From the sequence record MN709127.1: DNA of 64,000 nucleotides. The stretch is one strand, 5' to 3'. Source of the DNA: Escherichia phage Ec_Makalu_002. Shown in pieces: positions 5,689 through 61,784 of this stretch; position 1 is the first letter of the stretch; the number at the start of each line of letters is the position of its first letter. Both the position numbers and the translations under genes were made by a program. Under the pieces are notes generated by a model. It made no database searches. It saw only the letters and a program-made list of their open reading frames with translations, and was not told where the DNA came from.

Positions 5689-6087
5689 TCATTTTGCAAG
5701 TCTTATGCGTAGTTGTTCAAGATCATCTGGGTTATCTATTACTGAAAAGTAGATTGATACTATGATTGAATTATCGTCGTACTGCGGAGTTACTTCTACT
5801 GTCAGGTTTCGGACCCGTGGTTCATAGTTTCGGATTGCCTCATTAATGTTTTTTGATAAGGTATCCACTGTCAGTGGGTTCATGTTCTCAAACAGTGATT
5901 TATTGAGGTCACATCCAAACAGTGGATCAAATGGACGAGATCCCTTGCGAGTAGTCACGATCAGTAGAATAGAATCCTTAACCGCTTTAATTCCTATGTT
6001 CTTTTTAACGTCGTTATTCCACGATCTGGATATATTGAGATCCAAATCAGTATACATCTGATTAATTGTTGCCATGTTATACCTCAA
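5689..6087 (-). CDS. 25: baseplate wedge protein gp25
   Basis: 132 aa; TTRKGSRPFDPLFGCDL and FSVIDNPDD match remembered T4 gp25. Confidence 0.9.
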   Translation of the reverse strand: MRYNMATINQMYTDLDLNISRSWNNDVKKNIGIKAVKDSILLIVTTRKGSRPFDPLFGCDLNKSLFENMNPLTVDTLSKNINEAIRNYEPRVRNLTVEVTPQYDDNSIIVSIYFSVIDNPDDLEQLRIRLAK

Positions 6088-6713
6088 AGAATTTTAAGGA
6101 AACTGGATAGACCTGATAATGAATATACACCAGATTCCCCGCATTCGCATTTGATCGGTACTGCCAGCGTGATTTGATTTCTTGTTAGCTCGTCGATCAC
6201 TTCTTCCACTTTATCCGTGGTAAGCATATCCAACACGCGGTCAAAGTCCTGCGCGTTCAGGTCGTCTATATTGAATTGCTGATCGCCGATCACGATATAT
6301 TCGATACATGCAATTACCATCTGCATAATATCAACATCTTCTGTAAACTTAGGTTGACGAAACTTGATTTTTACTTGTCCTAAGTCTAGAATATACGGTT
6401 CGACTTCTGGTATCTGTGTGCGTGAAACATCAAGAGAATATACTTTCTCTTTATTGCATACACCACACACCCAAGTAGCATCAATTTTCATCTTATTGAG
6501 GCTGTGACACCATAAGAGAAGAAAAATATATTCTGCTTCGCATTTCTCTAGCTCTAATGCATTGATCCCCGTACATTCGTATATAATCTCTATAACAACA
6601 TCTGACAGCTTGCCAGTCTCTTTTGCTGCTACCAGTTTTTGAAATTCGCCGAAGGTGAAAGCACGGGCGTGTATCAACTTTTCGCCTATTTGGATCTTGA
6701 AAAAGTATTGCAT
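6084..6713 (-). CDS. 26: baseplate hub protein gp26
   Basis: 209 aa; position between 25 and 51; Cys pairs; paralogous to adjacent gp51. Confidence 0.7.
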   Translation of the reverse strand: MQYFFKIQIGEKLIHARAFTFGEFQKLVAAKETGKLSDVVIEIIYECTGINALELEKCEAEYIFLLLWCHSLNKMKIDATWVCGVCNKEKVYSLDVSRTQIPEVEPYILDLGQVKIKFRQPKFTEDVDIMQMVIACIEYIVIGDQQFNIDDLNAQDFDRVLDMLTTDKVEEVIDELTRNQITLAVPIKCECGESGVYSLSGLSSFLKIL

Positions 6714-6783: not shown

Positions 6784-7554
6784 ATGAATATTATCCGAAT
6801 AAAACTACCGGAAGGTGTACAGCGATTTAAACCATTCACGGTAAAAGATTATAGAGATTTCCTTCTGGTGTCAACTGAAATTAAGATGAATCCAGAAGAA
6901 GAACAAACTATACTGGATGAGCTACTAGAAGAAATATATCCAGACGTAGACCCTGCATTTCGTGAATATATTTTCCTGAACGTTTTTACTAGCTCAATAG
7001 GTAAAACAAAGATACCGCTTTGCTTTACTTGCCCGACTTGCAACAAAGAAAGAAAAATGTTGCTCAACTTACAGGTCGAAGCACTAAAACCAATCGTTCT
7101 GGAGGCCGCAGGGCTTAAAATAACTTTCCGGTATGTGAAACCATCAACCGACTATGCAAAAACGTTTCTAGATGCGATAGAGCGTGTCTCTGATGGTGTT
7201 AATGATTATCTATGGACTGAATTACCGGAAGAAGTTAGAGATCAGGTTATCGATTCAATCTCATTTGCTGAATTTGAAGAAGTTGTTAAGCAGATGCACA
7301 CGATCAAGATCGAACAAAAGATATCTTGCTGTGAAAGTCATGACCTGAAATACATAGGTCTTCTTCCATTATTCAAATTGTTGTTGAATCCAGATGAGTT
7401 ATTCATCTTTTATCGAATAAACCATCTATTGGCAAAATCAAATTATTCTATCAGTGATCTTATGGACATGTTACCCGTCGAGAGAAACATTGCACTGACA
7501 CTGGTCGAGAAAGACGTAAAAGAGGCAAACAATGCAAAGAACGGGGTTTCCTAA
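6784..7554 (+). CDS. 51: baseplate hub assembly protein gp51
   Basis: 256 aa; first gene of the 51-27-28-29-48-54 block; synteny and size. Confidence 0.7.
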   Translation: MNIIRIKLPEGVQRFKPFTVKDYRDFLLVSTEIKMNPEEEQTILDELLEEIYPDVDPAFREYIFLNVFTSSIGKTKIPLCFTCPTCNKERKMLLNLQVEALKPIVLEAAGLKITFRYVKPSTDYAKTFLDAIERVSDGVNDYLWTELPEEVRDQVIDSISFAEFEEVVKQMHTIKIEQKISCCESHDLKYIGLLPLFKLLLNPDELFIFYRINHLLAKSNYSISDLMDMLPVERNIALTLVEKDVKEANNAKNGVS

Positions 7555-44877: not shown

Positions 44878-47800
44878 ATGGCAGATTTTTCTCAACATTT
44901 CAAGGCCACATTTGGCTTTGACGCTGGTAATGAAAAGGTCGTCAATGTAGCATTGGCTGATAAAAACACATCAACGGATGCGGTCAACGTTGAGTTTTTC
45001 AATTACCATAATGGTATTACTCAGTATGACACAACTCGCGGTTATGATCAATACGGAACTACAATCTATCAAAACCGTCCGTATTATGCAAAAGAAGATA
45101 TCACAAAGCCAGCAGGTGATTTTGACCCGACTAAATGGCAAGCACTGCGCACGGACCCACGTTGGGATTATATTGCAGCAACTTCCGGTGATACTCCTTT
45201 AAAGTCTGGTGATTATATCGCAGCAGATGGTCAATTTGCAAACTTGACTTTCTCTATGCCAACTAAACCAGCAGAGGGAGACACTATAACAGTAAAAGAT
45301 ATCGGTGGCAAGTGTGGTGTTAACGAATTATCGTTCTTGAGTTCAGGACATGAGTTTTACCATAACGGTAATGTGTATAACCGAAAATGGTATTGCACTA
45401 CCCCGTATGCAATGAACTATTTCATCTTTGTTCGTAATCGTTGGCATGTTTATCAGACAGGAACAGAGCCACGCGGTGTGTACGCACAGCCAGCGATTGA
45501 TGCTATTCAAATGCAGAATGGTGATCAGGTATTTCGTCGTAGTTCTTTGGGTAATATTACCTTAGTGCTTCCTAAGTTTGCCAACAATGGCGACATGATC
45601 CAGACTACAGACCTTGACGGATTAACCGTAACCAACCACGTTACGGTTAAAGTTCATGAGCACGCAGAAGAACAATCAATTGGCACGTCCGGTCTAAAAG
45701 AGATTATCGGTAAGCGTAGCGGTCATGGTGTATTCATCTTTGACAAGACGGAAAACTTATGGCGTTTGTGGGATGGTGATCAGTCTGTTCGTCTTAAACC
45801 GATCATCGATGACACTCGCTTGCAACCTAATAGCTATGTTGCCGTATTTGGTGATCGTGATGTTACTCTGACGCTGCCGACCAATGTCGAGCCGGGTGAT
45901 CGTATTCAAGTTTCTATGCAGTATATGCACGGAAACCAGAATTGCCGTATTATCACCGCCACAGAGGATACAAAAATCCTCATGTCGAAAAACATGGTTC
46001 AGTTTCCGAAGCGTAGCGAGTACCCATTCAACGGGACCGACACATGGAAGGAAGTGTCTGAATTGTCGTTCAATGCGGCTAGTGATTATGTACCTTATCT
46101 GGAGTTCTCTTATTCAGAAGGTGATGATGGTAAGAAACATTGGCTGGTAGCACACTCTCATCCGATCGTCGAACGAGTAGACCCTACTCGTAAAGATCGT
46201 GTTGGTGTCATTGCACTGGCTACCCAGACTGAAACGAATAAAAACCATGAAGAGAATCCTAGCGACGAAGTTGCCGTAACACCAAAAATGCTGGCTAATA
46301 AAACAGCCAACGAAACTCGACGCGGTATTGCTCGTATTGCTACTCAGGCGGAAACGCATCAAGATACTGGTTCCAGCTTCCTGGATGATGTTATCGTTAC
46401 ACCTAAAAAGTTAAATGACTGTGTTGCTACCGAAGCCCGTCGTGGTGTGATGGAAATTGCAACCCAGCACGAAACCAATGAAGGTTTAGACGATACACGC
46501 GCTATTACTCCTAAGAAATTAGAAGAACGTCGCGCTTCCGAAGACCTCGCTGGTATTGCTGAAATTGTTCAGGTAGGCGGTCGTGCTGCCGCTCGACGTG
46601 GTGAAGCTGGTACAGGGATCTATAACATCAATGACCATGCTAAAATTGTTACACCACAAAACATCAACGAGGTCAAGGCGACCGAAACTTCCCGTGGTGT
46701 TGGCTATCTGGCAACTGACGCGGAAGTGCAAGGGGCTACAGAATCAACACCGCAAGATGCTTTACTAATCACGACTCGCACGCTAACGAAACGTACTGCT
46801 ACCGAATCGCGCACTGGTATCGCTGAAATTGCAACTCAGGAAGAAACAAACTTAGGTCAAAGTGATAACCATATCATCACGCCTAAAAAGCTGCATACTC
46901 GCCGTGCGACGGAAACTCTACACGGTTTAGCAGAAATTGCAACTCAGCCGGAATTTGACGCAGGTCTTGACGATGCTCGCATTTCTACCCCATTGAAGAT
47001 TAAAACCTTCTTTGAGAATGCACAGCGTTTGAAAGTAGATCCGACTCAGGGGCTTAACCTTACTGGTGATTTGTGGCAAGGTATCATGATCAGCGGTCTG
47101 GACGCAACCGAAGACACAAAAGGTGTCGCTAAAGTTGCTACTACTCAGCTTACTGACGCTGGTCAAGATGATACTACAATCATCACGCCTAAAAAGCTGC
47201 AAGGCAAAAAGGCCACCGAAGGTAAAGAAGGTATTATCCGAGTTGGTACTCAAGCCGAAACCGTGGCTGGTACACTGGCTAATGTAGCAATTTCTCCGAA
47301 GAACTTCAAATATGTTGTTCAGACAGAGGATACATGGAAAGCAACCGAAGCTCGTCGTGGTTTCTTGAAAGTTGCTACTCAGGAAAACTGTTTTGTTGGT
47401 GACAATCTGCAAGGTTCTACTCAAGAACTAGGAAACTACCAGCATGACGGAATTGCTGTTACTCCGAAAGGATTAAACTACGCACTTGCTAATTTCTTGC
47501 CTAAGATGGCAACCGCTCAGAATAGTTTGAAATTGGGTAACGTAGAGGCCGCTAAATGGGCGCGTAGAGACATTGACCAGACCATAGAGAGCAATTACAC
47601 GTTTAATAAAAACGTTAACGTGAAGGGCGATTTAGAGTGCTTAAAATCAGGTTCCTTTGAAACTCTGTATGTGACTAAGAACTCTACTGATGATCCGAGT
47701 AATGGTCATCTGGTGTTGGGTGAGCGTGGAGTTGACGGTCACACCGGAATTACTCTGCATGGCACAACCGCATCGGAAGGCATGAAAAACTCCTGGTCTA

Positions 47801-51554: not shown

Positions 51555-54323
51555 ATGGCAGATTTAAGCAGAATCCAATTTAAACGTACTAGCACTAAAG
51601 GCCGTCGACCTGATGCTGGTACGATGAATCCGGGGGAATTGGCAATCAACCTTGCGGATCAATATCTTCTTACTAAAAATGATTCCGGCGCTATTATCAA
51701 TTTAAGTTGTCCTCCGGTTTATGACCGTGATGTTACAATGGCGGGTAAGGTTAAAGGAAATAATTATATTTTAAGTAAAACCGCCAATTATCTGGAAGAC
51801 CAGACAGCGAGAGATCTTAACTACTTTGGTGCTTTCCGTACCAATAGTCTAGATGGACTCATGGATCTAACCCTTAACGTTCCTCACTCTTCCGGTAAAG
51901 CGCATGGTCGAGGATTTACTTTCCGTTATGGGACTGGCGGATCTCGTGTTGAAACCTATGGTTTTGATGTTCAGGGACAAAAAGCATTTAGTTATAAAAT
52001 GTATCATGAAGGGGATAAACCGACTCCCTCAGAATTGAACGTTTATAGCAAACAAGAAGTTGACCGTATGTTTGTTAAAACCGTTAAACTTGCTACAGTT
52101 CCTGTTGATATCGTTGACGGTTATTTTAAATTAGCAACTGCATTGATTCCGCAAAACGGTCGTAGTGTATTTTTCCGTATTCATGGTGGTAACGGATATA
52201 ACGTTACTGCATACGATCAAGTTGATATTGTAGAAATTGTTATTCGCAGTGGAAATAATCGTCCTAAAGGTGTTAACGTTATTGCATACCGCCGAAATAC
52301 AAACAAAGCATTTGATGTTTTGGCTGTTAATACTTCTGGTGATAACTATGATATCTACGTGAAATATCAGCGTTACACTGATAACGTTATTGTTGAATTT
52401 GGTAAAAGTGTTGATGTTGATCTGGTAGTCCATGACGTTCCAGACTTTGTTGTTGATCGTCCTGTTGGCGATAATGTTATTGGCGGTCGCGCGGTAACTC
52501 TTTTTAACACCGAAAACAAACGAGGTGTGTTGAGTTTTGACGATAACACACAAAATAGTTATGATATTGTTCACTTGAGTAATGATAAAGGTACTGGACG
52601 GAAATATATTCGTAAATTCCGTAGTAACTATAATGAAATGATCTGGCATGAGACTGTTCAAGGTTCTACTTATCGACTCGCCACGGGTAGTACAGATGCT
52701 CAGGAAATTATAACTATTGAATCTAGTAGCTCAATTGCTGGAACTCATAAAGGTAATATTATTTCTGGTCGTATGCTGTTAAATGGCGGATCTAATGCCA
52801 TTACACTACGCCGACCTGCTGGTCAATCTAATCATATTGCGTTTCAAGATAATCGTACTGGAGATATTACCCGTCAAGGTTGGCTGGGCTACGCAAACGC
52901 CGATACTGACGTTTTTGAATGGTATAGTGATGTAGGTGGCAGTTCTATTCGTCAACATATCGACGGACAGATCGAATTTCAGACAGGTAACATGAAGCGA
53001 GTCTATACCAACGGTCAATTCATTTCTTTATATGCTGATGGCTTCCGTACTGTATATGGTAACTATGGTTCATGGTGGCGAAATGACGGCAGCAACGTTT
53101 ATCTGATGAGCACAAAATCAGGCGACACTATGGGTCCGTGGAATACCTTTAGGCCGTTCATCTATAGCCTAGCCAATGGAAACGTTACACTAGGTGGTAG
53201 CGACGCTGGCAACCATTTAATGCGTCTCAACAATGAAAATCGTCAAGTAGAAATAAATGCAACAACACATTTAGGGTCTCGATTATATTGGGAAGGTAGC
53301 GAAGGTTCTGCATCTAGATTTTTTATTAAGAATTGGGGTGATGGAACTTCTCGCGCTCAGGTGTGGGAACTTGCAGACGAAACAAGCTATCATCTATATT
53401 CTCAGCGTGATTCTAACGGTTCGATTCAATTCCGAGTTGCTGGTAGTTTAGAAACGGGTGGTCGTGCTCAGATAAATGGTGATTTGGTGGTTACTAATGT
53501 TTTGCGTACCAATAACCAAATTCAGATTTATCGCGATAACAACAAAGAAATCTGGTTTAAGGATGCTGATGGTACTAACCGTGGTGTTATCTGGGGTGGC
53601 GCTGACGGTAAAATGAGACTGCGCAATTATTCTAGCGGAGAGTATGACCATGTGTTTGAAGCTGGTATGATTCGCCTTGAGCGTGGTTATGCTAATGGAC
53701 AAGGTGCTGGCTTGATTCGTGGTGAGGTTCAAGGTGGAGCGTGGTCCGACTGGAGAACTCGTGCTGCTGGTTTATTAGTTGACTGCCCTAATGCTCAAAC
53801 TTCCGCATATAACGTATGGAAAGCGACCAAATGGGGATTAGACCACATCGCGGCAATGGGCGTTCATATTCCTAGCGGTGTTGTTGGTAACTCTATTGCG
53901 CGTTTGCATGTTGGTGGCACTAACTTTGATTTTAGCGCTACTGGTGACTTTACCGCAGGTCGTAACGGTTCGTTTAACGATGTGTACATTCGTTCTGATG
54001 CTCGCCTGAAAATCAATAAGGAAGAGTATAAAGAGAATGCCACCGATAAAGTTAATCGCTTGACTGTGTACACCTACGATAAGGTTAAGTCTTTGACGGA
54101 CCGCACTGTTATCGCTCATGAAGTTGGTATTATTGCTCAGGATCTTGAGAAAGAATTGCCGGAAGCAGTAACAACTTCTAAGGTCGGCGATCCTGATAAG
54201 CCAGAAGAGATCTTAACAATTTCTAACTCTGCTGTCAACGCTCTTTTAATTAAGGCGTTTCAGGAAATGAGCGAAGAATTGAAAGCCGTTAAAGCTGAAC
54301 TAGCGGAACTTAAAAAGAATTAA
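51555..54323 (+). CDS. 37: long tail fibre distal subunit gp37 with C-terminal intramolecular chaperone-like domain
   Basis: N-terminus matches T4 gp37; C-terminus SDARLKINKEE...IIAQDLEKELPEAV...coiled coil resembles S74-type auto-cleaving chaperone. Confidence 0.85.
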   Translation: MADLSRIQFKRTSTKGRRPDAGTMNPGELAINLADQYLLTKNDSGAIINLSCPPVYDRDVTMAGKVKGNNYILSKTANYLEDQTARDLNYFGAFRTNSLDGLMDLTLNVPHSSGKAHGRGFTFRYGTGGSRVETYGFDVQGQKAFSYKMYHEGDKPTPSELNVYSKQEVDRMFVKTVKLATVPVDIVDGYFKLATALIPQNGRSVFFRIHGGNGYNVTAYDQVDIVEIVIRSGNNRPKGVNVIAYRRNTNKAFDVLAVNTSGDNYDIYVKYQRYTDNVIVEFGKSVDVDLVVHDVPDFVVDRPVGDNVIGGRAVTLFNTENKRGVLSFDDNTQNSYDIVHLSNDKGTGRKYIRKFRSNYNEMIWHETVQGSTYRLATGSTDAQEIITIESSSSIAGTHKGNIISGRMLLNGGSNAITLRRPAGQSNHIAFQDNRTGDITRQGWLGYANADTDVFEWYSDVGGSSIRQHIDGQIEFQTGNMKRVYTNGQFISLYADGFRTVYGNYGSWWRNDGSNVYLMSTKSGDTMGPWNTFRPFIYSLANGNVTLGGSDAGNHLMRLNNENRQVEINATTHLGSRLYWEGSEGSASRFFIKNWGDGTSRAQVWELADETSYHLYSQRDSNGSIQFRVAGSLETGGRAQINGDLVVTNVLRTNNQIQIYRDNNKEIWFKDADGTNRGVIWGGADGKMRLRNYSSGEYDHVFEAGMIRLERGYANGQGAGLIRGEVQGGAWSDWRTRAAGLLVDCPNAQTSAYNVWKATKWGLDHIAAMGVHIPSGVVGNSIARLHVGGTNFDFSATGDFTAGRNGSFNDVYIRSDARLKINKEEYKENATDKVNRLTVYTYDKVKSLTDRTVIAHEVGIIAQDLEKELPEAVTTSKVGDPDKPEEILTISNSAVNALLIKAFQEMSEELKAVKAELAELKKN

Positions 54324-54363
54324 GGAAACTCCCAGGGAAGGGAACTACTAAGGAGAAACGGCT

Positions 54364-54603
54364 ATGGTCTATAATATCGTCATTGGTGCTTTGTCTAATT
54401 TCGGAATGAAATTATTGTCAAAGTTAATTAGTGAAAAGATGCTCACTAAAATTTTCTTCTATTGCGCTCGTCGTCTTGCGGCTTATACCAATACGCCAAT
54501 TGATGATCGTTTTGTGGAAGAACTTTATAAGGAGTTTAATAAAGATCAGTCAGAAGATAGTAACGAGCAAGATAAACCTAGTGATAGTCAACTACCTAAA
54601 TAA
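54364..54603 (+). CDS. hypothetical small protein (79 aa) in the gene 38 position
   Basis: ORF track; hydrophobic N-terminus, acidic C-terminus. Confidence 0.4.
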   Translation: MVYNIVIGALSNFGMKLLSKLISEKMLTKIFFYCARRLAAYTNTPIDDRFVEELYKEFNKDQSEDSNEQDKPSDSQLPK

Positions 54604-54636
54604 GAGTACACTGTCATAGTTATCTTAGGGCATTAT

Positions 54637-55293
54637 ATGCAAGTTTCTGAAAAAGGGAAAGACTTTGCTATCTCAAATGTCCTGCGCGCTATTTTCACAA
54701 CTAAAAGCACGGAGTTGCTCGTACTTCGTGTTTTTGCTGCCGTCGTGTTGTCCATATTAGCATTTGTCGTTTATAGTAAAAACGAGTTATTCGCGCTTTA
54801 TAAAGAGACTCGTTATGAGACTTATGCTCACATTCTCCAGGTAGAGAAAGACCGCAATTTTGATAATGCAGCACAGGAGCAGTTACAGATAGTTCATGTA
54901 TCGGCTGATGCCGATTTTTCTGCTGTTTTTAGTTTTCGTCCGAAAAACCTAAACTATTTTGTTGATTTGGTGGCATATGAAGGAAAGCTACCGCATACAA
55001 TCGATGAAAAAAATTTAGGCGGATTCCCTATCAATAAAACGAGTGAAGAATATCGTAGGCATCTTTTAGGTAAATCATATTTTACCGATAAAGATTTCCA
55101 GTATATTCCATCAAGAGAAAAGAAATTAGAGAATATCGATATAGGTTTCATGTATTCTTGTCCTATATTCAATCTCGATAATGTCTATTCTGGTAGTATC
55201 GCCATTTCATGGAAGAATAAACCGGATATTGACATTGAGAATTTAGATACTCTTTGCAATCAATCTGCCAGAATCCTCGGAAGGATTAGATAA
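54637..55293 (+). CDS. t: holin
   Basis: 218 aa; one N-terminal TM; EQLQIVH.SADADFSAVFSFRPKNLNYFVDLVAYEGKLP nearly identical to T4 T. Confidence 0.9.
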   Translation: MQVSEKGKDFAISNVLRAIFTTKSTELLVLRVFAAVVLSILAFVVYSKNELFALYKETRYETYAHILQVEKDRNFDNAAQEQLQIVHVSADADFSAVFSFRPKNLNYFVDLVAYEGKLPHTIDEKNLGGFPINKTSEEYRRHLLGKSYFTDKDFQYIPSREKKLENIDIGFMYSCPIFNLDNVYSGSIAISWKNKPDIDIENLDTLCNQSARILGRIR

Positions 55294-55299
55294 ATTAAA

Positions 55300-55330
55300 G
55301 GGGAAGCCTTTCGGCCTCCCCTTCTTTTTT
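55300..55330 (+). terminator. rho-independent terminator after t
   Basis: GGGGAAGCCTTTCGGCCTCCCC followed by TTCTTTTTT. Confidence 0.55.
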
Positions 55331-55577
55331 ATTGGCGCATAGAAGCCCCTGAATCGCATTTTGACGCTGTATGATGAAAACAGGTAGCGTACCAGTCATC
55401 GGCTTGTTTGTCTTCGTCAGAAAACGCGTAATTTCGTTGTATGTCGTTTTCTACTTTGACCAGTGCAATAGCTGTTTCTGGAAGATCAATTAATCTGACA
55501 AAATCACCATCTTCCCACTCTACACGAGCAATATCATAGCCCATCTCAAAGTATACAATCGCTTGTTCTAGTTTCAT
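55329..55577 (-). CDS. hypothetical protein (82 aa)
   Basis: ORF track. Confidence 0.4.
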   Translation of the reverse strand: MKLEQAIVYFEMGYDIARVEWEDGDFVRLIDLPETAIALVKVENDIQRNYAFSDEDKQADDWYATCFHHTASKCDSGASMRQ

Positions 55578-55906
55578 TTTGGAAACTTCCCGTAAATGTT
55601 TTCTGCCAGCTTACGTGCATCGATGATAATGTCATTCATGCTATGCCCGTAGTGTTCAGCCATTGACATAATACAATCAACAAAGAAATTATATCGGCAA
55701 CGATTCAAGATTTGCTCTTTGCTGTAAACTTCATACTTGACGGTCGCGTGTACTTTCTCGATTGCCTTAATCGCTGTATTGACTTCACTGATAATGGTTT
55801 TCGCATTGTATGCACCACGACGGATCAGGATTTGAGTCAATTCTCTTGCAATATCTTGCATTTCTTCATATTCATGTTCAAGCATAATTAACCTCTCAAA
55901 ATACAA
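55574..55906 (-). CDS. hypothetical protein (110 aa)
   Basis: ORF track; ATGA coupling. Confidence 0.45.
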   Translation of the reverse strand: MYFERLIMLEHEYEEMQDIARELTQILIRRGAYNAKTIISEVNTAIKAIEKVHATVKYEVYSKEQILNRCRYNFFVDCIMSMAEHYGHSMNDIIIDARKLAENIYGKFPK

Positions 55907-55909
55907 TAA

Positions 55910-56242
55910 TTACAGATGAAACCCTGTTACGATCACCGCGTCGATCATACCGCTAGGGATAAACGGTTCACCCTCTTTTATCTCAACTTTGAATTGATGC
56001 CATTTCGCTAATACTTCTTCCGGTACACCCAGCGATTCGGCATCTGCTTTAGTTTCATCCATAATCCAGCTAGGATGCATGAGAGCATAGTTTACATAGT
56101 CCATTTCTGGGGTCATGTCATCAATGTTAATATATTTGCAGTTGACGCGTTTCAGAATTTCAAATTCTTTTTCATCAACCTGTACCATGTATAATTCAGT
56201 AGTTTCTGGAATCAGTTCCCACACAATCAGTACATTTTTCAT
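55910..56242 (-). CDS. hypothetical protein (110 aa)
   Basis: ORF track. Confidence 0.45.
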   Translation of the reverse strand: MKNVLIVWELIPETTELYMVQVDEKEFEILKRVNCKYINIDDMTPEMDYVNYALMHPSWIMDETKADAESLGVPEEVLAKWHQFKVEIKEGEPFIPSGMIDAVIVTGFHL

Positions 56243-56250
56243 AGTTCACC

Positions 56251-56619
56251 TCACTTAACAAAGATTTTCTTTAATGCTTTCAGGATCGTTGCTTCCGGCG
56301 CTTCTTCCGGTGGAGGAAGCAATTCTACCACTTCCTCTTCCAACTCGATATAGTCTACCAGATATTCTACATAGAATGCAAGTGCTTCCATGAAATTAGA
56401 TGCTACATCCGATTCACCACAAGCGCCTACATGCATTGTATAAACATCACTGCGATCAAGTTTGTGGATGCTTCCCAGATAGTTCCGGTTATACCAGACT
56501 TCCCACACTTTCAGTTTTCCGGTTTTGGTTGCTGTCTTATAATCTGTTTCGTAGTGGTGCAGTTGACGTTGCAGATCATTGATAATAACACATTTTTCGT
56601 AATTGTTTTGAATTTCCAT
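56251..56619 (-). CDS. hypothetical protein (122 aa)
   Basis: ORF track. Confidence 0.45.
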   Translation of the reverse strand: MEIQNNYEKCVIINDLQRQLHHYETDYKTATKTGKLKVWEVWYNRNYLGSIHKLDRSDVYTMHVGACGESDVASNFMEALAFYVEYLVDYIELEEEVVELLPPPEEAPEATILKALKKIFVK

Positions 56620-56629
56620 GATGTAATCC

Positions 56630-56821
56630 TCACTTATCGTTAAGAAGTTCTAAAACTTTCTGTCGTACTTTGTCAATATTAGTTGACTCAAATACTGTAC
56701 GGTATCCCCAACTTTGACCGTATGATCGAGAGCAATCCCCGTATCCCCATTGTTCAACCTGATAGTATTCAAGGAATGGGTGTTGCCGAACTATGATACC
56801 ATCGCGATTAAAAATTACCAT
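56630..56821 (-). CDS. hypothetical protein (63 aa)
   Basis: ORF track. Confidence 0.4.
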   Translation of the reverse strand: MVIFNRDGIIVRQHPFLEYYQVEQWGYGDCSRSYGQSWGYRTVFESTNIDKVRQKVLELLNDK

Positions 56822-56844
56822 AATATAATCCTCACGTCAACAAA

Positions 56845-57123
56845 CTATTTTCGGTTATACTTCTGCCACTTTCGGTAATACTGCTTGTAATGTTGTTTAA
56901 TGTTTGGCGGTTCGTCACTATACATGTTATCAACCATCATGTCAATAAGACCCTCCGGTGTTTGATAGCTCCCCGCTCGAATAAGTTCCTTAATTAAAAG
57001 ATCTTGTGTCGCTTTATACTCTACAATAACAACTGTCTTTTCTGCCTTTCCAATTCCGATCCGGTCGTTAGCTCTCATAGCATCCCACCAGTCTTTTTTA
57101 AACTTCATGTTATTGAATTGCAT
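56845..57123 (-). CDS. hypothetical protein (92 aa)
   Basis: ORF track. Confidence 0.45.
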   Translation of the reverse strand: MQFNNMKFKKDWWDAMRANDRIGIGKAEKTVVIVEYKATQDLLIKELIRAGSYQTPEGLIDMMVDNMYSDEPPNIKQHYKQYYRKWQKYNRK

Positions 57124-57134
57124 AATTTAACCTC

Positions 57135-57893
57135 TTACTTGCAAACGTATTGATCTACATCAATTGCGCCACCGAATGTAGGATGACGTTTTTCAAATCG
57201 AATAGTTCCGTCGTTTGGTTCGAAAACGGAGTATTCATATAGATCTTTCTTGCCAACATTCTTATAAAACCCGCCTTTAGTCATAACGGTTTCTTGTACG
57301 TTTGCTTTGTGTACATTGTATTCATCAATGTACACAAAATCAACCATCTTCCCATTTTTAATAGTTACTTTAAGATCCCCTGGCTGGTTTCCATATTTTG
57401 CATACAGTGGAGATTCTTTAATTTTGGTGGAAATTCCATCTTTCATACTCCACTCATAACGAACGGTGCATTGATAGGTAAAAGTTTCGACCTTCGGTTC
57501 TTCCACCACTTTTGCTTCCTGTTTCGGTTGTTCTTCTTCAACCTTCGCAGAAGTCTCTGAATCGCTTTCTGACGCGGTTTCTTCTTTAGGTAATACATTC
57601 ATCAAGTTTTGGATTTGAGCGTTATATACAGCCTCCAGTGGCTGAATCTGCCCGATATTGATCATTGTATCACGAACAGTTTTATTCCAGTTGCGTTGCT
57701 CTTGTTTCAGAGACGGATCAATCTTAACAGCCTTAACATATACTTCATGAAGTTTAGAATCAAGTGCGGAGATTGACTCGTTAGCACAAATAAACTTCTC
57801 TGATTTGGTAGTAGCCTTAGTGCAATCAAAGGACGCAGCATTAGCACCGATGGCAGTAGCAGAAAGAAAGATAGCAGCGATAATGTTTTTCAT
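57135..57893 (-). CDS. secreted protein with LprI/DUF1311-like N-terminal domain and Cys-bracketed C-terminal domain
   Basis: Signal peptide MKNIIAAIFLSATAIGANA; CANESISALDSKLHEVY...QRNW pattern; C-terminal domain bounded by Cys. Confidence 0.5.
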   Translation of the reverse strand: MKNIIAAIFLSATAIGANAASFDCTKATTKSEKFICANESISALDSKLHEVYVKAVKIDPSLKQEQRNWNKTVRDTMINIGQIQPLEAVYNAQIQNLMNVLPKEETASESDSETSAKVEEEQPKQEAKVVEEPKVETFTYQCTVRYEWSMKDGISTKIKESPLYAKYGNQPGDLKVTIKNGKMVDFVYIDEYNVHKANVQETVMTKGGFYKNVGKKDLYEYSVFEPNDGTIRFEKRHPTFGGAIDVDQYVCK

Positions 57894-57927
57894 AATATAT
57901 TCCTCAATGTCTTGTCTTGATGGGAGT

Positions 57928-57956
57928 ATCTTACTACTCCCTTAATCCGGTGTCAA
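57928..57956 (-). promoter_or_regulatory. sigma70-like early promoter (TTGACA-17-TAAGAT)
   Basis: Hexamers at 17-nt spacing. Confidence 0.4.
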
Positions 57957-57963
57957 CTACTTT

Positions 57964-58119
57964 TTAAATTTCTTCTACAGTAAAGTCTTCAATGTTGTTG
58001 TGCTCGGAGAACGTTGCCAGACCAGCATTCCATGCATCATCCTCAGAGAAGAATACACCGTAACGTTCATATCCTTTAGCGCCTTCAAATTTAATCATTA
58101 ATTTGTGAGTATGTTTCAT
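57964..58119 (-). CDS. hypothetical small protein (51 aa)
   Basis: Hand-translated (MKHTHKLMIKFEGAKGYERYGVFF...); RBS GGAGAA. Confidence 0.35.
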   Translation of the reverse strand: MKHTHKLMIKFEGAKGYERYGVFFSEDDAWNAGLATFSEHNNIEDFTVEEI

Positions 58120-58150
58120 TTTGATTCTCCATCGTTGTCTTGATGAGTTT

Positions 58151-58179
58151 AGTATAGGGGATCACCGATCCCCTGTCAA
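58151..58179 (-). promoter_or_regulatory. sigma70-like early promoter (TTGACA-GGGGATCGGTGATCCCC-TATACT)
   Basis: Same palindromic-spacer architecture as 16914 and 22574. Confidence 0.45.
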
Positions 58180-58188
58180 CAACTATTT

Positions 58189-58401
58189 TTAATTTTTACC
58201 CACGCGTAAATTAATGCGCATTTTCTGCATAGCCATGATCTGGTTTACTGCTTCTTCTTTACGCTCTTTCGTGATAATGTGACCAGATTCCGCAAACGCT
58301 CCCGCAACTTCTTCTACGATCTCGCGAACTTGAGAACGTCCAAAGATGCGATTTCCTTCGTAGCTCATAAACTCGGTTACTACTTGCTCAATAGATTTCA
58401 T
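58189..58401 (-). CDS. hypothetical small protein (70 aa)
   Basis: ORF track. Confidence 0.45.
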   Translation of the reverse strand: MKSIEQVVTEFMSYEGNRIFGRSQVREIVEEVAGAFAESGHIITKERKEEAVNQIMAMQKMRINLRVGKN

Positions 58402-58470
58402 GTGATTCTCCTTCTTTCGTTTCGGTGTGGGAGTATGTTAATACTCCCGTTTCTTTACATCAACCAGTTT

Positions 58471-58776
58471 TTAGAAATTTTTCGCTTCTTCTTCGGTCAT
58501 CATAACCGCGCATTCGTGCATAACTTTGAAAACCGGATCAATCATGTCGAATGCTTCGCGAGACAGTTTACGAGAAGCGATTTTGATTGCTTCAACGTCT
58601 TCTACTACAGGAACAAAAACAGTTTTCAGTTCATCGAGCACAGCAGCTTCTTTTTCATTCAGGAAGATTCCAGCGTCGTACAGTGCAACTTCGATAACAT
58701 TAACTTTAACCATTTTTATTTCCTCCAGTTCGTTTCGGTATGTGAGTATAATACTACCGATGACCTTTGGCGTCAA
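58471..58776 (-). CDS. hypothetical small protein
   Basis: Track ORF includes leader read-through; likely ATG about 58713 (MVKVNVIEV...). Confidence 0.4.
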   Translation of the reverse strand: MTPKVIGSIILTYRNELEEIKMVKVNVIEVALYDAGIFLNEKEAAVLDELKTVFVPVVEDVEAIKIASRKLSREAFDMIDPVFKVMHECAVMMTEEEAKNF

Positions 58777-58977
58777 CTAGTTTTTGTTATTTTCGTGAAA
58801 ATTTTTCGTCGCCTCATGTGCTTTTCGCTGGGCTTCTTGTTGTGCTTGCTGGCGTGCTGCCTCTTGTGAAGCCATAACGGAAGCATTTGCAGCAGTTACA
58901 GCCGCTACCATCGCTGCGGTATTAGCATTTACAGTACATGCACTAGCCAGCAAAGCAATTGCAATCATTTTCTTCAT
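58777..58977 (-). CDS. small secreted or lipoprotein-like Ala/Gln-rich protein (66 aa)
   Basis: Signal peptide MKKMIAIALLASAC. Confidence 0.45.
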   Translation of the reverse strand: MKKMIAIALLASACTVNANTAAMVAAVTAANASVMASQEAARQQAQQEAQRKAHEATKNFHENNKN

Positions 58978-59159
58978 AGTTTCCCCTTTAGGTTATCTTC
59001 GACCTTCATCCATTCCGCGTATTCTTGCGCAGCTACTTTCGGATTTAGTCCGTCTTCGTACATTGCATCGAGTAATTCTTCGTCGGTGGGCTTATACCCT
59101 AGATAAGCCTCCACCTGATTTTTCCAAATTTTATACCAGTTCATATTATCACCAATCAA
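58974..59159 (-). CDS. hypothetical small protein (61 aa)
   Basis: ORF track; ATGA coupling. Confidence 0.4.
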   Translation of the reverse strand: MIGDNMNWYKIWKNQVEAYLGYKPTDEELLDAMYEDGLNPKVAAQEYAEWMKVEDNLKGKL

Positions 59160-59481
59160 GAGCGCGTGTCTCTGCGTCTTCCCATGCTTGATCCATTACA
59201 GCCTTAAAAACATACTCTAAGGTATCATCTTTAGAGAATCCGAAGACTTTAGACGGAATATCTTCGATTGCCACTCCCGAAACTTCTGCATTACGCGCTT
59301 GGCAATAATGCAACTCTAAGTTATCGAGATAGCGACCGCCTAATTTCTCCATATCGTCCCAGCATTTCCAATAACCGACTTTATCGGCAATTGCTAACAC
59401 TTTGCTGTTTTTGTTGCTCATCTTTGATTCTCCTTTTGTTTGGTGTGGGAGTATTTTACTACTCCCTTGTTCTGGTGTCAA
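59149..59481 (-). CDS. hypothetical small protein
   Basis: Leader read-through in track ORF; likely ATG about 59421 (MSNKNSKVLAI...). Confidence 0.4.
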   Translation of the reverse strand: MTPEQGSSKILPHQTKGESKMSNKNSKVLAIADKVGYWKCWDDMEKLGGRYLDNLELHYCQARNAEVSGVAIEDIPSKVFGFSKDDTLEYVFKAVMDQAWEDAETRALDW

Positions 59482-59487
59482 TAGACT

Positions 59488-59736
59488 TTATTTGATTATT
59501 TCAAATTTTGCTACCGGGTCGCCGTTTCTTTTGTTGGCAGTAAGTTGTTGCTTGTCAAAGTAAAACCAAATATAGTCACCATGAACTACATCAAATGTAT
59601 TTCCGCTATTGTCCGTGAATACATCAACATCATAATCACACCCGACACTAAAGCTATAATTGATGTGGTCGGTTTCAATGCAACGTACTTTCATTTTTTG
59701 ATTCTCCTGTTGTTTCAGTTTGGGTGTATTATGCAA
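59488..59736 (-). CDS. hypothetical small protein
   Basis: Likely ATG about 59694 (MKVRCIETDH...). Confidence 0.4.
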   Translation of the reverse strand: MHNTPKLKQQENQKMKVRCIETDHINYSFSVGCDYDVDVFTDNSGNTFDVVHGDYIWFYFDKQQLTANKRNGDPVAKFEIIK

Positions 59737-59768
59737 TGTTTGATTATGGGAGTCAACAACTTTTCAAA

Positions 59769-59795
59769 TAAAAAAGCCGACCACAAGGATCGGCT
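59769..59795 (-). terminator. rho-independent terminator
   Basis: AGCCGATCCTTGTGGTCGGCT followed by TTTTTTATTTG; near-identical stem to terminator at 49813. Confidence 0.55.
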
Positions 59796-59805
59796 TAATA
59801 ATCAA

Positions 59806-60201
59806 TTACTTACTAAATTTCTTTTTGGCTTCGTCTACTGCATGAGATGCTAGTACCGCTGCCGCATGTGCACTTTTATCTGTGTTACAGAGAACACCCA
59901 GATAAACATCACGCCAAAGTTTAATCATCTCGTAGATCATATCAATATCATTTTCTTGTTTGTTGGCGATGTTATTCGTCGTTATCTGGTAAGGCAACGG
60001 TTTGATCTGTACTGGTTCCGCCATCGGGCTAATCGGTTTCGGATCGGTCATAATAGGTGCTGTTGTCGGTGATGTTTTCCATACGCCATTATCCCACGGT
60101 TTAATCGTTGTATCGTACAGTTTATAAGGATTTTTGTCTGGATTAACCATCCATGCATGATGATTACCCAAACCATTTGCAGTGATGCGTCGTTCAGTCA
60201 T
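59806..60201 (-). CDS. hypothetical protein (131 aa)
   Basis: ORF track; downstream of gene 52. Confidence 0.45.
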   Translation of the reverse strand: MTERRITANGLGNHHAWMVNPDKNPYKLYDTTIKPWDNGVWKTSPTTAPIMTDPKPISPMAEPVQIKPLPYQITTNNIANKQENDIDMIYEMIKLWRDVYLGVLCNTDKSAHAAAVLASHAVDEAKKKFSK

Positions 60202-60204
60202 AAT

Positions 60205-60408
60205 TTATTTCCTCTCTGATAATTCTTTCATCAAGCTGTCGATCTTTGCTCTGTGTTCTGGCGTGTTTGTCATCTCTGCTAATTTGCTCAGAGATTCACT
60301 GGTGATCCGGTTGGATTCTTCCAGTGTTTCAACGACCATTGGCACAATCTTTTTATTATTGTACACAAATGCAATATAACCGCCTTCTGGATACTCTTTC
60401 ATAATCAA
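60205..60408 (-). CDS. hypothetical small protein (67 aa)
   Basis: ORF track; ATGA-coupled to gene 52. Confidence 0.4.
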   Translation of the reverse strand: MIMKEYPEGGYIAFVYNNKKIVPMVVETLEESNRITSESLSKLAEMTNTPEHRAKIDSLMKELSERK

Positions 60409-61784
60409 CCCTTCTTAAGTTCTTTAAGATCTTTCTTATATTCCTTCATTGCGGTCGTCTTTGTCCAATACTCATATTCACTATGATGTTTATCGGCATC
60501 TTTGACCAGTCGATCATACTCTTCTTGGGTAACGCTGTACAATGGCATAGAAACTAGCTTATCGGCGTATGGACGCAGTTTTTCATGTCCATTGATGGAT
60601 TGCATTACCTCGGCCTTTTTCTTTCCCTGTAGCTCGATTTCGCCCTTAATTACGCGATCGATAAATTCTGCTTTAGCCATTGCATAATTGTATGCTTCCA
60701 GCGTTTCGGCTTGCATCAATTCAATGCGTTTATCTACATAGCCTAATCGGATTTCGACGAATCGACGGATCAGATCGCTCGCTTTCTCGAATACTTCAAC
60801 TAAACCACGTTCGTTAACTACTACGATATTTTGGGCTACTAACTGCGTTAGTTTAAAATCCTTCATGATTTGCTCATGTCGAGCGGATTCATCTTCGCTT
60901 TTGAAATAATCGCGTTTCAGTGTTACTTCAAATCTGAATCCATCCTTAGAGCAACGGTCATTATACGATACAATCAGATCTTTTTCTTCCAGTGCATCCA
61001 GTACCGCTACATATTCTTCACGGTCGAACTTATAAGGAACTTCCGTTATTGTCAGCTTAGTCTTGCCGTTTAGTTCATATGTACCCTCAAGAATCACACC
61101 ATCGCGATCATCTCGCGGGATAACTTTACCCGTGAATTTCGGGAATTGAACAGTAGGTTCTTTATCCAGTTTTCCGGCAAGTGCTAGCTCTGTGCATTCG
61201 ATGAGGCTTTCCAGTGAATGCGGTAAAATGTCAGTTTTATACCCTGTAGCAATACCACTAATACCATTAGCCAATACCATTGGTACAACTGGCAAGTAGA
61301 ATGCTGGCGGGATGTGTTCCAGATCTTCGTGCTTAGGTGCGCAATTCATATCTTTATAGATTTTAAAGAAGTTTTCATGCACACGAGCAAAGATATAACG
61401 TGCTGCCCCCGCTTTCTGGACTAAACGCGATCCAAAGTTACCTTGACCGTCAAGCAGCGGAGTATTATTGCTCCATGTATTCGCCATGAGTGATCCGGCT
61501 TCTACGGCATTAGTTTCCCCGTGATGATAACCTAACTCAGCAACACCAGATCCAATATCTGCCATCTTACGGAATTTTTTACGGTCGCCTTTACTCTTTT
61601 GCAAAGCACATTCCATAACAAAGCGTTGCACTGGTTTAAGCCCATCTACTAATTGAGGAATCCCGCGTTCCTCGGCAGAATAGATCGCATATTCCTTAGC
61701 TTCATTGTGTACAATGCTTTCAAGGCTACGGTAAGTAATTGTGTTTATAATTTGACTAATTTTATCCATCTTCACCTCATACAC
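60405..61784 (-). CDS. 52: DNA topoisomerase II medium subunit gp52
   Basis: GLKPVQRFV and GQGNFGS GyrA/ParC-type motifs; 459 aa. Confidence 0.9.
   Translation of the reverse strand: MYEVKMDKISQIINTITYRSLESIVHNEAKEYAIYSAEERGIPQLVDGLKPVQRFVMECALQKSKGDRKKFRKMADIGSGVAELGYHHGETNAVEAGSLMANTWSNNTPLLDGQGNFGSRLVQKAGAARYIFARVHENFFKIYKDMNCAPKHEDLEHIPPAFYLPVVPMVLANGISGIATGYKTDILPHSLESLIECTELALAGKLDKEPTVQFPKFTGKVIPRDDRDGVILEGTYELNGKTKLTITEVPYKFDREEYVAVLDALEEKDLIVSYNDRCSKDGFRFEVTLKRDYFKSEDESARHEQIMKDFKLTQLVAQNIVVVNERGLVEVFEKASDLIRRFVEIRLGYVDKRIELMQAETLEAYNYAMAKAEFIDRVIKGEIELQGKKKAEVMQSINGHEKLRPYADKLVSMPLYSVTQEEYDRLVKDADKHHSEYEYWTKTTAMKEYKKDLKELKKG

Follow-up and report, generated by a model that had tools for sequence, protein, structure and literature searches.

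Small early genes at the position of the T4 asiA-motA block: the t-52 interval of the Krischvirus Escherichia phage Ec_Makalu_002

Six small open reading frames (ORFs) lie on the minus strand at positions 55329-57123 of a 64,000-nucleotide stretch of DNA from Escherichia phage Ec_Makalu_002 (sequence record MN709127.1), which we call the window. They adjoin the holin gene t, in the interval between t and gene 52 where bacteriophage T4 encodes AsiA, Arn and MotA. An earlier note, made from the sequence alone, called these ORFs orphans with no recognisable motifs, saw no ORF of MotA size, remarked on TTGACA -35 elements of host type at the early promoters, and suggested from this a different strategy of middle-mode transcription. 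What are these genes, how are they likely to be transcribed, and does the phage retain any of the T4 middle-mode system?

The t-52 interval and its transcription unit

The window belongs to a Krischvirus genome (an RB49-like coliphage, Krischvirus gec3s). A megablast search with positions 54300-60300 matched 62 phage records; all are RB49-like coliphages and, where the taxonomy was checked, Krischvirus. The top match and nearest relative is Escherichia phage Ec_Makalu_003, with 99.5% identity across the whole query, and the match coordinates place the window at approximately positions 98,966-162,966 of its 162,966-bp genome. The local order is gene 37, an ORF of 79 amino acids (aa), holin t, a run of small minus-strand ORFs and gene 52 (Table 1).

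In T4, the t-52 interval contains asiA, asiA.1, arn, arn.1-arn.4, motA and motA.1, in agreement with the earlier note. Here, the interval (55294-60404) holds 16 small ORFs of 51-252 aa (82, 103, 110, 122, 63, 92, 252, 51, 70, 80, 66, 56, 90, 68, 131 and 65 aa). None is near the 211 aa of MotA, as the note had observed, but its inventory of six ORFs and one secreted protein covers only the t-proximal third of the interval. Within that third, all six minus-strand ORFs of 63-122 aa are present as the note described them.

Table 1. Coordinates of genes and signals in and around the t-52 interval (positions in the window)
Feature	Position	Strand	Remarks
Distal tail-fibre gene 37	51555-54323	+	From local gene order
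79-aa ORF	54364-54603	+	phrog_402; between gene 37 and t
Holin t	54637-55293	+	Left boundary of interval; Pfam Phage_holin_T, E 4.5e-61
Hairpin terminator (predicted)	55297-55324	.	GC-rich, 12-bp stem; between convergent t and ORF1; annotated as terminator on both strands in GEC-3S and Ec_Makalu_003
ORF1	55329-55577	-	82 aa; start overlaps ORF2 stop (ATGA)
ORF2	55574-55885	-	103 aa from ATG at 55885
ORF2, alternative TTG start	55574-55906	-	110 aa
ORF3	55910-56242	-	110 aa; phrog_4658
ORF4	56251-56619	-	122 aa; phrog_1594; T4 Arn.4 homologue (by sequence match)
ORF5	56630-56821	-	63 aa; phrog_6957
ORF6	56845-57123	-	92 aa; phrog_15915; basic C-terminal tail
252-aa protein	57135-57893	-	First gene of the unit; Pfam PF07007 (LprI/DUF1311 lysozyme inhibitor) and phrog_14799
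Early promoter cassette, PeSL type	57928-57956	-	TTGACA, 17 nt, TAAGAT; GGGAGTA/TACTCCC stem-loop over -10
Upstream PeSL promoter	58151-58179	-	TTGACA, 17 nt, TATACT; GGGGATC/GATCCCC stem between -35 and -10
Further PeSL promoter	59453-59481	-	TTGACA, 17 nt, TAAAAT; GGGAGTA/TACTCCC stem
Gene 52 (topoisomerase II medium subunit)	60405-61784	-	Right boundary of interval; tblastn with T4 gp52, 51% identity, E 1e-146; annotated in Ec_Makalu_003 and GEC-3S

Each of the six ORFs is preceded by a GAGG-type Shine-Dalgarno site, only a few bases from the preceding stop codon, or starts in an ATGA overlap with that stop. All six are annotated as coding sequences in the nearest records, Ec_Makalu_003 and GEC-3S, and all six match a PHROG family at E<=1e-18. 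Relative to GEC-3S, synonymous changes outnumber non-synonymous ones in ORF1 (5:1), ORF3 (9:2), ORF4 (12:0), ORF5 (5:2) and ORF6 (10:5). The tight packing, Shine-Dalgarno sites, synonymous excess and PHROG matches together indicate that the six ORFs are real genes. For ORF2, translation most likely begins at the ATG at 55885, just downstream of a GAGAGG Shine-Dalgarno site; the resulting 103-aa product is also the one annotated in the nearest genome.

How might these genes be transcribed? Arbiol et al. 2010 described sigma-70-like promoter/stem-loop cassettes, termed "promoter-early stem-loop" (PeSL) elements, in the Krischvirus relatives RB49 and phi1. They are defined by an AT-rich tract, sigma-70 consensus -35 and -10 boxes, a GC-rich stem-loop that lies over these boxes or between them, and the Shine-Dalgarno site and ATG of a small ORF (PMC2839356). 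Three near-identical cassettes with every one of these elements lie within the t-52 interval (at 59481, 58179 and 57956), with predicted folding energies of -13 to -17 kcal/mol. The cassette at 57956-57928 has the AT-rich upstream tract AAAAAGTAG, and is followed by a leader and then by the Shine-Dalgarno site and start codon (ATG) of the gene for the 252-aa protein. At the far end, the hairpin at 55324-55297 is predicted to close both the t unit and the unit that ends with ORF1. No other credible promoter or terminator was found between the 57956-57928 cassette and this hairpin. With a cassette upstream, a terminator at the end and no credible signal between them, the seven genes (the 252-aa gene, then ORF6 down to ORF1) therefore most likely form one early operon. 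A perfect TTGACA-17-TATAGT match inside ORF6 (56917-56945, minus strand) was set aside as an internal promoter, since it has neither the AT-rich tract nor the stem-loop seen in the real cassettes; it is probably a chance match, and could otherwise be a promoter for ORF5 to ORF1.

The region varies among relatives. DNA matching the six-ORF region occurs in 62 Krischvirus records, 27 of which cover at least 80% of it. ORF6 DNA gave no alignment in many Krischvirus genomes, RB49 and ECD7 among them. The 5' part of ORF2 is mosaic between strains, with only the 3' 123 nt aligning to GEC-3S (76% identity), and in GEC-3S, ORF2 and ORF3 are separated by two additional ORFs of 41 and 110 aa (L001, 3776-4546). 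These comparisons mark the ORF2 region as a local mosaic and indel hot spot. The partial coverage, the lack of ORF6 alignments and the extra ORFs of GEC-3S are all consistent with the description of PeSL-bearing hyperplastic regions (PMC2839356).

Searches for AsiA, MotA and Arn and counts of promoter motifs

Scans of 20 ORFs (the 16 of the interval and four flanking it) against Pfam and PHROGs gave no match to AsiA, MotA or Arn. As positive controls, the T4 proteins strongly matched phrog_1166 (AsiA), phrog_1345 (MotA) and phrog_3151 (Arn). The search was extended to the whole genome with hidden Markov models (HMMs), run against 2552 stop-to-stop ORFs of at least 30 aa in six frames from the window and the remaining 99.5 kb of Ec_Makalu_003. 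The AsiA HMM, built from T4, UPEC01, ZZ1, Aeromonas 31, PspYZU05 and Astolliot, had its best match at E 0.047, inside the DNA polymerase ORF. The best matches for the MotA HMM (four sequences) and the Arn HMM were at E 1.1 and E 0.33, respectively; the sensitivity of the Arn HMM is limited, as it was made from two sequences, one of which is perhaps not a true Arn.

Leave-out controls indicate how far such models reach. For example, an AsiA HMM from T4 and UPEC01 found AsiA in phages of Acinetobacter, Aeromonas and Pseudomonas at E 7e-24 to 3e-8, the weakest being in a Pseudomonas Otagovirus that is not a strabovirus (E 3e-8). Similarly, a two-sequence MotA HMM found MotA in Acinetobacter phage ZZ1 (E 3e-22) and in the Pseudomonas strabovirus PspYZU05 (E 2e-35). 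Among 50,697 phage records, tblastn with T4 AsiA and MotA gave 1173 and 1143 matches, respectively, and no record recognisable as Krischvirus was among the matches listed (spread samples of 60 rows). The predicted structure of ORF2 was also compared with the PDB by Foldseek; no AsiA entry was among the 50 matches listed and nothing fell below E 0.58. Thus, no AsiA, MotA or Arn gene was found in the genome by the profile searches that the earlier note had proposed as a check that could refute it, either among the ORFs of the interval or in the rest of the genome.

One weak match was rejected along the way. A two-sequence AsiA HMM matched the 209-aa ORF at 6084-6713 with E 0.01, but this ORF is a T4_baseplate protein (PF12322, E 3e-44) and hence not AsiA. 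It is one of two divergent genes, at 6084-6713 (minus strand) and 6784-7554 (plus strand), that both match Pfam T4_baseplate at E ~1e-44.

Searches by tblastn with other T4 proteins gave a mixed picture. The late-transcription factors gp55 and gp45 are retained, as are RpbA, Srd and ModB, and MotB, ModA, Srh, Mrh, AsiA and MotA were not found in the genome.

If MotA were at work, its promoters should be visible as (a/t)3TGCTTtA, a gap of 11-13 nt and TAnnnT, enriched upstream of prereplicative genes. We counted the patterns TGCTTNA-N11-13-TANNNT (Mot-box) and TTGACA-N16-18-TANNNT (host type) and compared each count with the mean of shuffles that preserve dinucleotides. In T4 positions 1-50000, there are 16 Mot-box sites against 3.2 ± 1.7 expected, and one host-type site against 3.3. 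The Krischvirus genome shows the opposite pattern: four Mot-box sites against 2.5 and 25 host-type sites against 1.9 in positions 1-50000; one against 2.3 and 11 against 2.3 in positions 50001-99500; and two against 3.2 and 32 against 3.4 in the window. Genome-wide, the seven Mot-box promoters are at chance level (~8 expected), as compared with a five-fold enrichment in T4, and host-type promoters are enriched about ten-fold. The TTGACA elements that the earlier note had picked out are indeed strongly enriched.

Because the searches for AsiA and MotA were empty, Mot-boxes are at chance level and TTGACA promoters are enriched, the inference of a different middle-mode strategy is supported. The evidence supports a genome in which sigma is not appropriated by MotA and AsiA, and in which prereplicative genes would be driven by promoters of host type.

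RB49 itself has been looked at in this respect before. Nolan et al. 2006 report that a motA orthologue and a middle-promoter consensus were sought in RB49 and that neither was found (PMC1524935), and their passage on RB49 cites Desplats et al. 2002 for the same failed attempts. AsiA is listed there for RB69, 44RR, Aeh1 and KVP40 only, and Aeh1 and KVP40 have AsiA without MotA (PMC1524935). Arbiol et al. 2010 found that PeSLs act as strong promoters and terminators, that they cluster with ORFans in hyperplastic regions, and that shuffling has occurred between RB49 and phi1 (PMC2839356).

Protein families of the six ORFs

Of the T4 asiA-motA block, only arn.4 has a homologue that was found here, and that homologue is ORF4. 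The profile phrog_1594 is matched over its full length by ORF4 (E 8.8e-26) and is also matched by T4 Arn.4 (E 1.1e-26), and BLASTP aligns the two proteins with 26% identity over 89 aa (E 3e-9), in agreement with tblastn. By these matches, ORF4 is a homologue of T4 Arn.4 that has been retained in place. Arn.4 has no assigned function in T4 either. The similarity between the two proteins runs upstream of the annotated start of T4 arn.4 (T4 locus L003, 5628-5900, minus strand), and T4 Arn.4 covers only positions 43-111 of phrog_1594. The T4 arn.4 annotation may be short at the N-terminus, or the T4 copy may be truncated.

ORF3 belongs to a widespread family: tblastn matched 247 phage genomes, of which about 190 come from straboviruses outside Krischvirus. 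The latter are phages of Klebsiella, Enterobacter, Cronobacter and Citrobacter, and their matches have 36-43% identity. For example, a homologue lies in the same early cluster adjoining holin t in the RB43-like Citrobacter phage Margaery, a Pseudotevenvirus (L012, 1291-1620). No asiA or motA is annotated in the early cluster by t of Margaery. The ORF3 family may be typical of straboviruses that lack MotA.

Less can be said of ORF2, ORF5 and ORF6. The ORF2 family was found solely in genomes and contigs of Krischvirus-like phages, and its AlphaFold model is an all-helical four-helix bundle (predicted local distance difference test score, pLDDT, 85). ORF5 and ORF6 match only PHROG families of unknown function. 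Single-sequence searches of the PDB with ORF3, ORF4, ORF6 and the 252-aa protein gave nothing significant.

Of the six, only ORF1 offers a lead to function: it matches Pfam PF11195 ("Thoeris anti-defense 2-like") along its full length with 27.5 bits (cut-off 25, E 4.7e-6). Two relatives, P0004 and P0005 (48% and 41% identity), also pass, with 26.1 and 25.5 bits. All three proteins cover positions 1-71 of the 73 in the profile, and each exceeds the cut-off by a small margin. The protein database had already precomputed a Tad2-like assignment for the ORF1 cluster, and a scan against NCBIfam gave no match. ORF1 is 95-99% conserved in 58 Krischvirus genomes. Other relatives are almost absent: an exhaustive search of 1.84 billion representative proteins found only four true ones, and the long matches P0003, P0008 and P0009 were rejected as spurious because they are repeat-rich (RTX, fibronectin type III and the like).

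In the AlphaFold model of ORF1 (pLDDT 74), an initial helix leads into an antiparallel sheet of four or five strands, and a short helix comes last. This predicted topology is compatible with the published description of Tad2 (helix alpha1, an antiparallel beta1-beta5 sheet and short helices). Several DUF2829/Tad2-like proteins are among the best non-self matches to the model in BFVD, with template modelling (TM) scores of 0.5-0.64, probabilities of 0.82-0.99 and E values of 0.1-0.9. Single-sequence and profile searches of the PDB with ORF1 gave nothing significant and recovered no solved Tad2 structure. An HMM of 39 canonical Tad2 sequences scores ORF1 at ~9 bits, and ORF1 retains six of the 11 columns that are invariant among them. 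The pocket was compared using the SPO1 Tad2 sequence from PDB entry 8SME and its reported ligand contacts. The SPO1 residues W25, S76 and D79 are kept in ORF1 (as W21, S53 and D56), and N26, W73 and T78 are changed (to E22, Y50 and E55).

Taken together, the profile matches and the predicted structure suggest that ORF1 is most likely a small, oligomeric ligand binder within the DUF2829/Tad2 superfamily. Its ligand cannot be named because the pocket residues differ from those of canonical Tad2. The "orphan" label given to the six genes is overstated: it fails for ORF1 (Pfam Tad2-like), ORF3 (found in 247 phage genomes) and ORF4 (the T4 Arn.4 family).

An early accessory-gene cassette and the rival readings

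What is this locus? We consider it the t-proximal end of a hyperplastic region, an early accessory-gene cassette in an RB49-like phage without AsiA, MotA and Arn (probability about 0.85). Under this reading, the seven genes would be read by unmodified host RNA polymerase right after infection. The phage would follow a two-stage programme, in which all prereplicative genes are served by strong early promoters of host type, before gp55-dependent late promoters take over, with no appropriation of sigma. RB49 reportedly has two, rather than three, temporal classes of promoter. The six proteins would be early accessory proteins that the phage can dispense with, of the kind that acts in host takeover or anti-defence, swapped into and out of the region by PeSL-mediated recombination; among them, ORF4 would be the retained Arn.4 homologue and ORF1 a ligand binder of the DUF2829/Tad2 type.

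Known systems fit this reading to different degrees. The closest are the ORFan clusters of RB49 and phi1 with their PeSLs (PMC2839356): they belong to the same genus, have sigma-70 promoters with an AT-rich tract and GC-rich stem-loops beside small ORFs, and undergo insertions, deletions and replacements from strain to strain. The present locus differs from them in nothing of kind; this isolate simply carries ORF6 and lacks the two GEC-3S ORFs between ORF2 and ORF3. The t-52 interval of T4 has the same position and orientation, converging on holin t upstream of gene 52, and likewise consists of small early genes, with Arn.4 in common. Unlike in T4, however, AsiA, MotA, Arn and the other ORFs are replaced by unrelated genes, and the promoters are host-type TTGACA promoters rather than T4-type early or Mot-box promoters. 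RB43 resembles this genome in having no MotA and no middle-promoter consensus, and the ORF3 family occupies the same t-adjacent position in RB43-like phages. In contrast, Aeh1 and KVP40 both keep AsiA, and the present genome has neither AsiA nor MotA.

Several points weigh against our reading. Promoter use, read-through and timing are extrapolated from the sequence and from the literature on RB49 and phi1 rather than on this isolate. The description as "accessory or anti-defence" comes from location and one marginal family assignment, and ORF2, ORF3, ORF5 and ORF6 offer no functional clue. As for the Tad2 assignment itself, it is weak once one leaves Pfam: Foldseek of the ORF1 model against the PDB had no Tad2 among the 50 matches listed and nothing below E 1.7, hhalign of ORF1 against Tad2 gave a probability of 22%, and the invariant WNG motif of Tad2 is WED in ORF1.

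Three other readings can be set against an accessory cassette. It could be argued that such short ORFs, most of them without functional annotation, are chance open frames in non-coding early-region DNA. This is refuted by their end-to-end packing with a ribosome-binding site or ATGA overlap at each start, the excess of synonymous changes relative to GEC-3S, the PHROG matches of all six, and the relatives of ORF3 and ORF4 in distant straboviruses; we give it next to no credence. A more substantial suggestion is that at least one of the six proteins is a non-homologous functional replacement for AsiA and MotA, remodelling sigma-70 or RNA polymerase and so creating a cryptic middle class of promoters. 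The six genes do occupy the place of the T4 asiA-motA block and are apparently expressed early, ORF2 is small, all-helical and similar in size to AsiA (about 90 aa), ORF6 has a basic C-terminal tail, and the occurrence of AsiA without MotA in Aeh1 and KVP40 points to an evolutionarily flexible system (PMC1524935). However, none of the proteins resembles AsiA or MotA in sequence or fold, and the abundance of TTGACA consensus promoters across the early regions means that no second promoter motif is needed. Furthermore, published searches for a middle-promoter consensus in RB49 failed (PMC1524935), and neither the absence of ORF6 from many Krischvirus genomes nor the mosaic make-up of ORF2 would be expected of an essential regulator. 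We therefore regard such a replacement as very improbable.

The third reading concerns ORF1 alone, and goes further than ligand binding. ORF1 could be a working sponge of the Tad2 type, a tetramer that sequesters a nucleotide-derived immune signal (gcADPR, His-ADPR, N7-cADPR, cCMP/cUMP or a cyclic dinucleotide) and shields the phage from Thoeris, Pycsar or CBASS in E. coli. All of these signals are known ligands of Tad2 relatives, and because Tad2 relatives bind such different signals, a sponge role with a different ligand is plausible. Indeed, the Tad2 family is functionally versatile (bioRxiv 2025.08.24.671296). The full-length PF11195 match above the curated cut-off, made by ORF1 and independently by two relatives, argues for a sponge, as do the agreement of predicted topology with published Tad2, the DUF2829/Tad2-like models among the best BFVD matches, the retained equivalents of W25, S76 and D79 with tyrosine for W73, and the location in an early operon. 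ORF1 can also be likened to known Tad2/DUF2829 sponges (SPO1 Gp34.65, HgmTad2 and ModTad2) in size (82 aa versus 89 aa) and in its motifs, an N-terminal helix-G-x4-R-x2-W and a C-terminal S-x-x-D-x4-DW. It departs from them in WED for WNG, tyrosine for W73 and glutamate for T78, and in its very weak similarity to the canonical clade. The same departures tell against a working sponge: only six of 11 invariant residues remain, the ligand-contacting asparagine of WNG is glutamate, as is T78, the canonical HMM and hhalign scores are low, neither the sequence profile nor the 50 Foldseek matches listed yielded a solved Tad2 structure, and the confidence of the model is moderate (pLDDT 74). On balance, a working sponge is possible but doubtful. 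A more specific version, in which ORF1 founds a divergent, Krischvirus-specific branch of Tad2/DUF2829 whose altered pocket (WED, and tyrosine for W73) would bind a signal relevant in E. coli that canonical Tad2 does not, is less likely still.

What does an early accessory-gene cassette at this position add? The absence of MotA and AsiA has already been published for RB49 (Desplats 2002, Nolan 2006 and Arbiol 2010, that is, between 2002 and 2010), so the finding is correct but ordinary. The strong host-type early promoters and ORFan-rich variable regions of RB49-like phages are likewise in the literature. Beyond confirmation, there is little wider meaning, and the additions are at the level of annotation, for a genus that is now common in therapy collections. 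These are the recognition of ORF4 as the Arn.4 homologue, of the ORF3 family as common to RB43-like phages and the straboviruses of Klebsiella and Enterobacter, of ORF1 as marginally Tad2-like and deserving of a binding assay, and of a lysozyme-inhibitor domain in the neighbouring secreted protein. The only reading with some upside is that of ORF1 as a divergent sponge for an immune signal. If true, ORF1 would be an unrecognised counter-defence gene of RB49-like coliphages, located at the position of T4 asiA.

The neighbouring 252-aa protein has an N-terminus that resembles a signal peptide, as judged by eye from the translation, which agrees with its earlier description as secreted. Residues 24-76 match PF07007 with 26.3 bits (cut-off 22), covering positions 1-71 of the 106 in the profile. 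No match to the T4 proteins spackle (sp) and Imm was obtained by tblastn in the genome. Given the LprI domain and the lack of an sp or imm match, the 252-aa protein could be a periplasmic lysozyme inhibitor or an analogue of a superinfection-exclusion protein.

Elsewhere in the 64-kb window, no Rfam family reached its gathering score and a tRNA scan found no tRNA genes. On the other side of holin t, the 79-aa ORF occupies the place of T4 gene 38. In Ec_Makalu_003, the annotated "receptor-recognizing protein (tail fiber adhesin)" lies far from there, at 45280-46059 of its genome.

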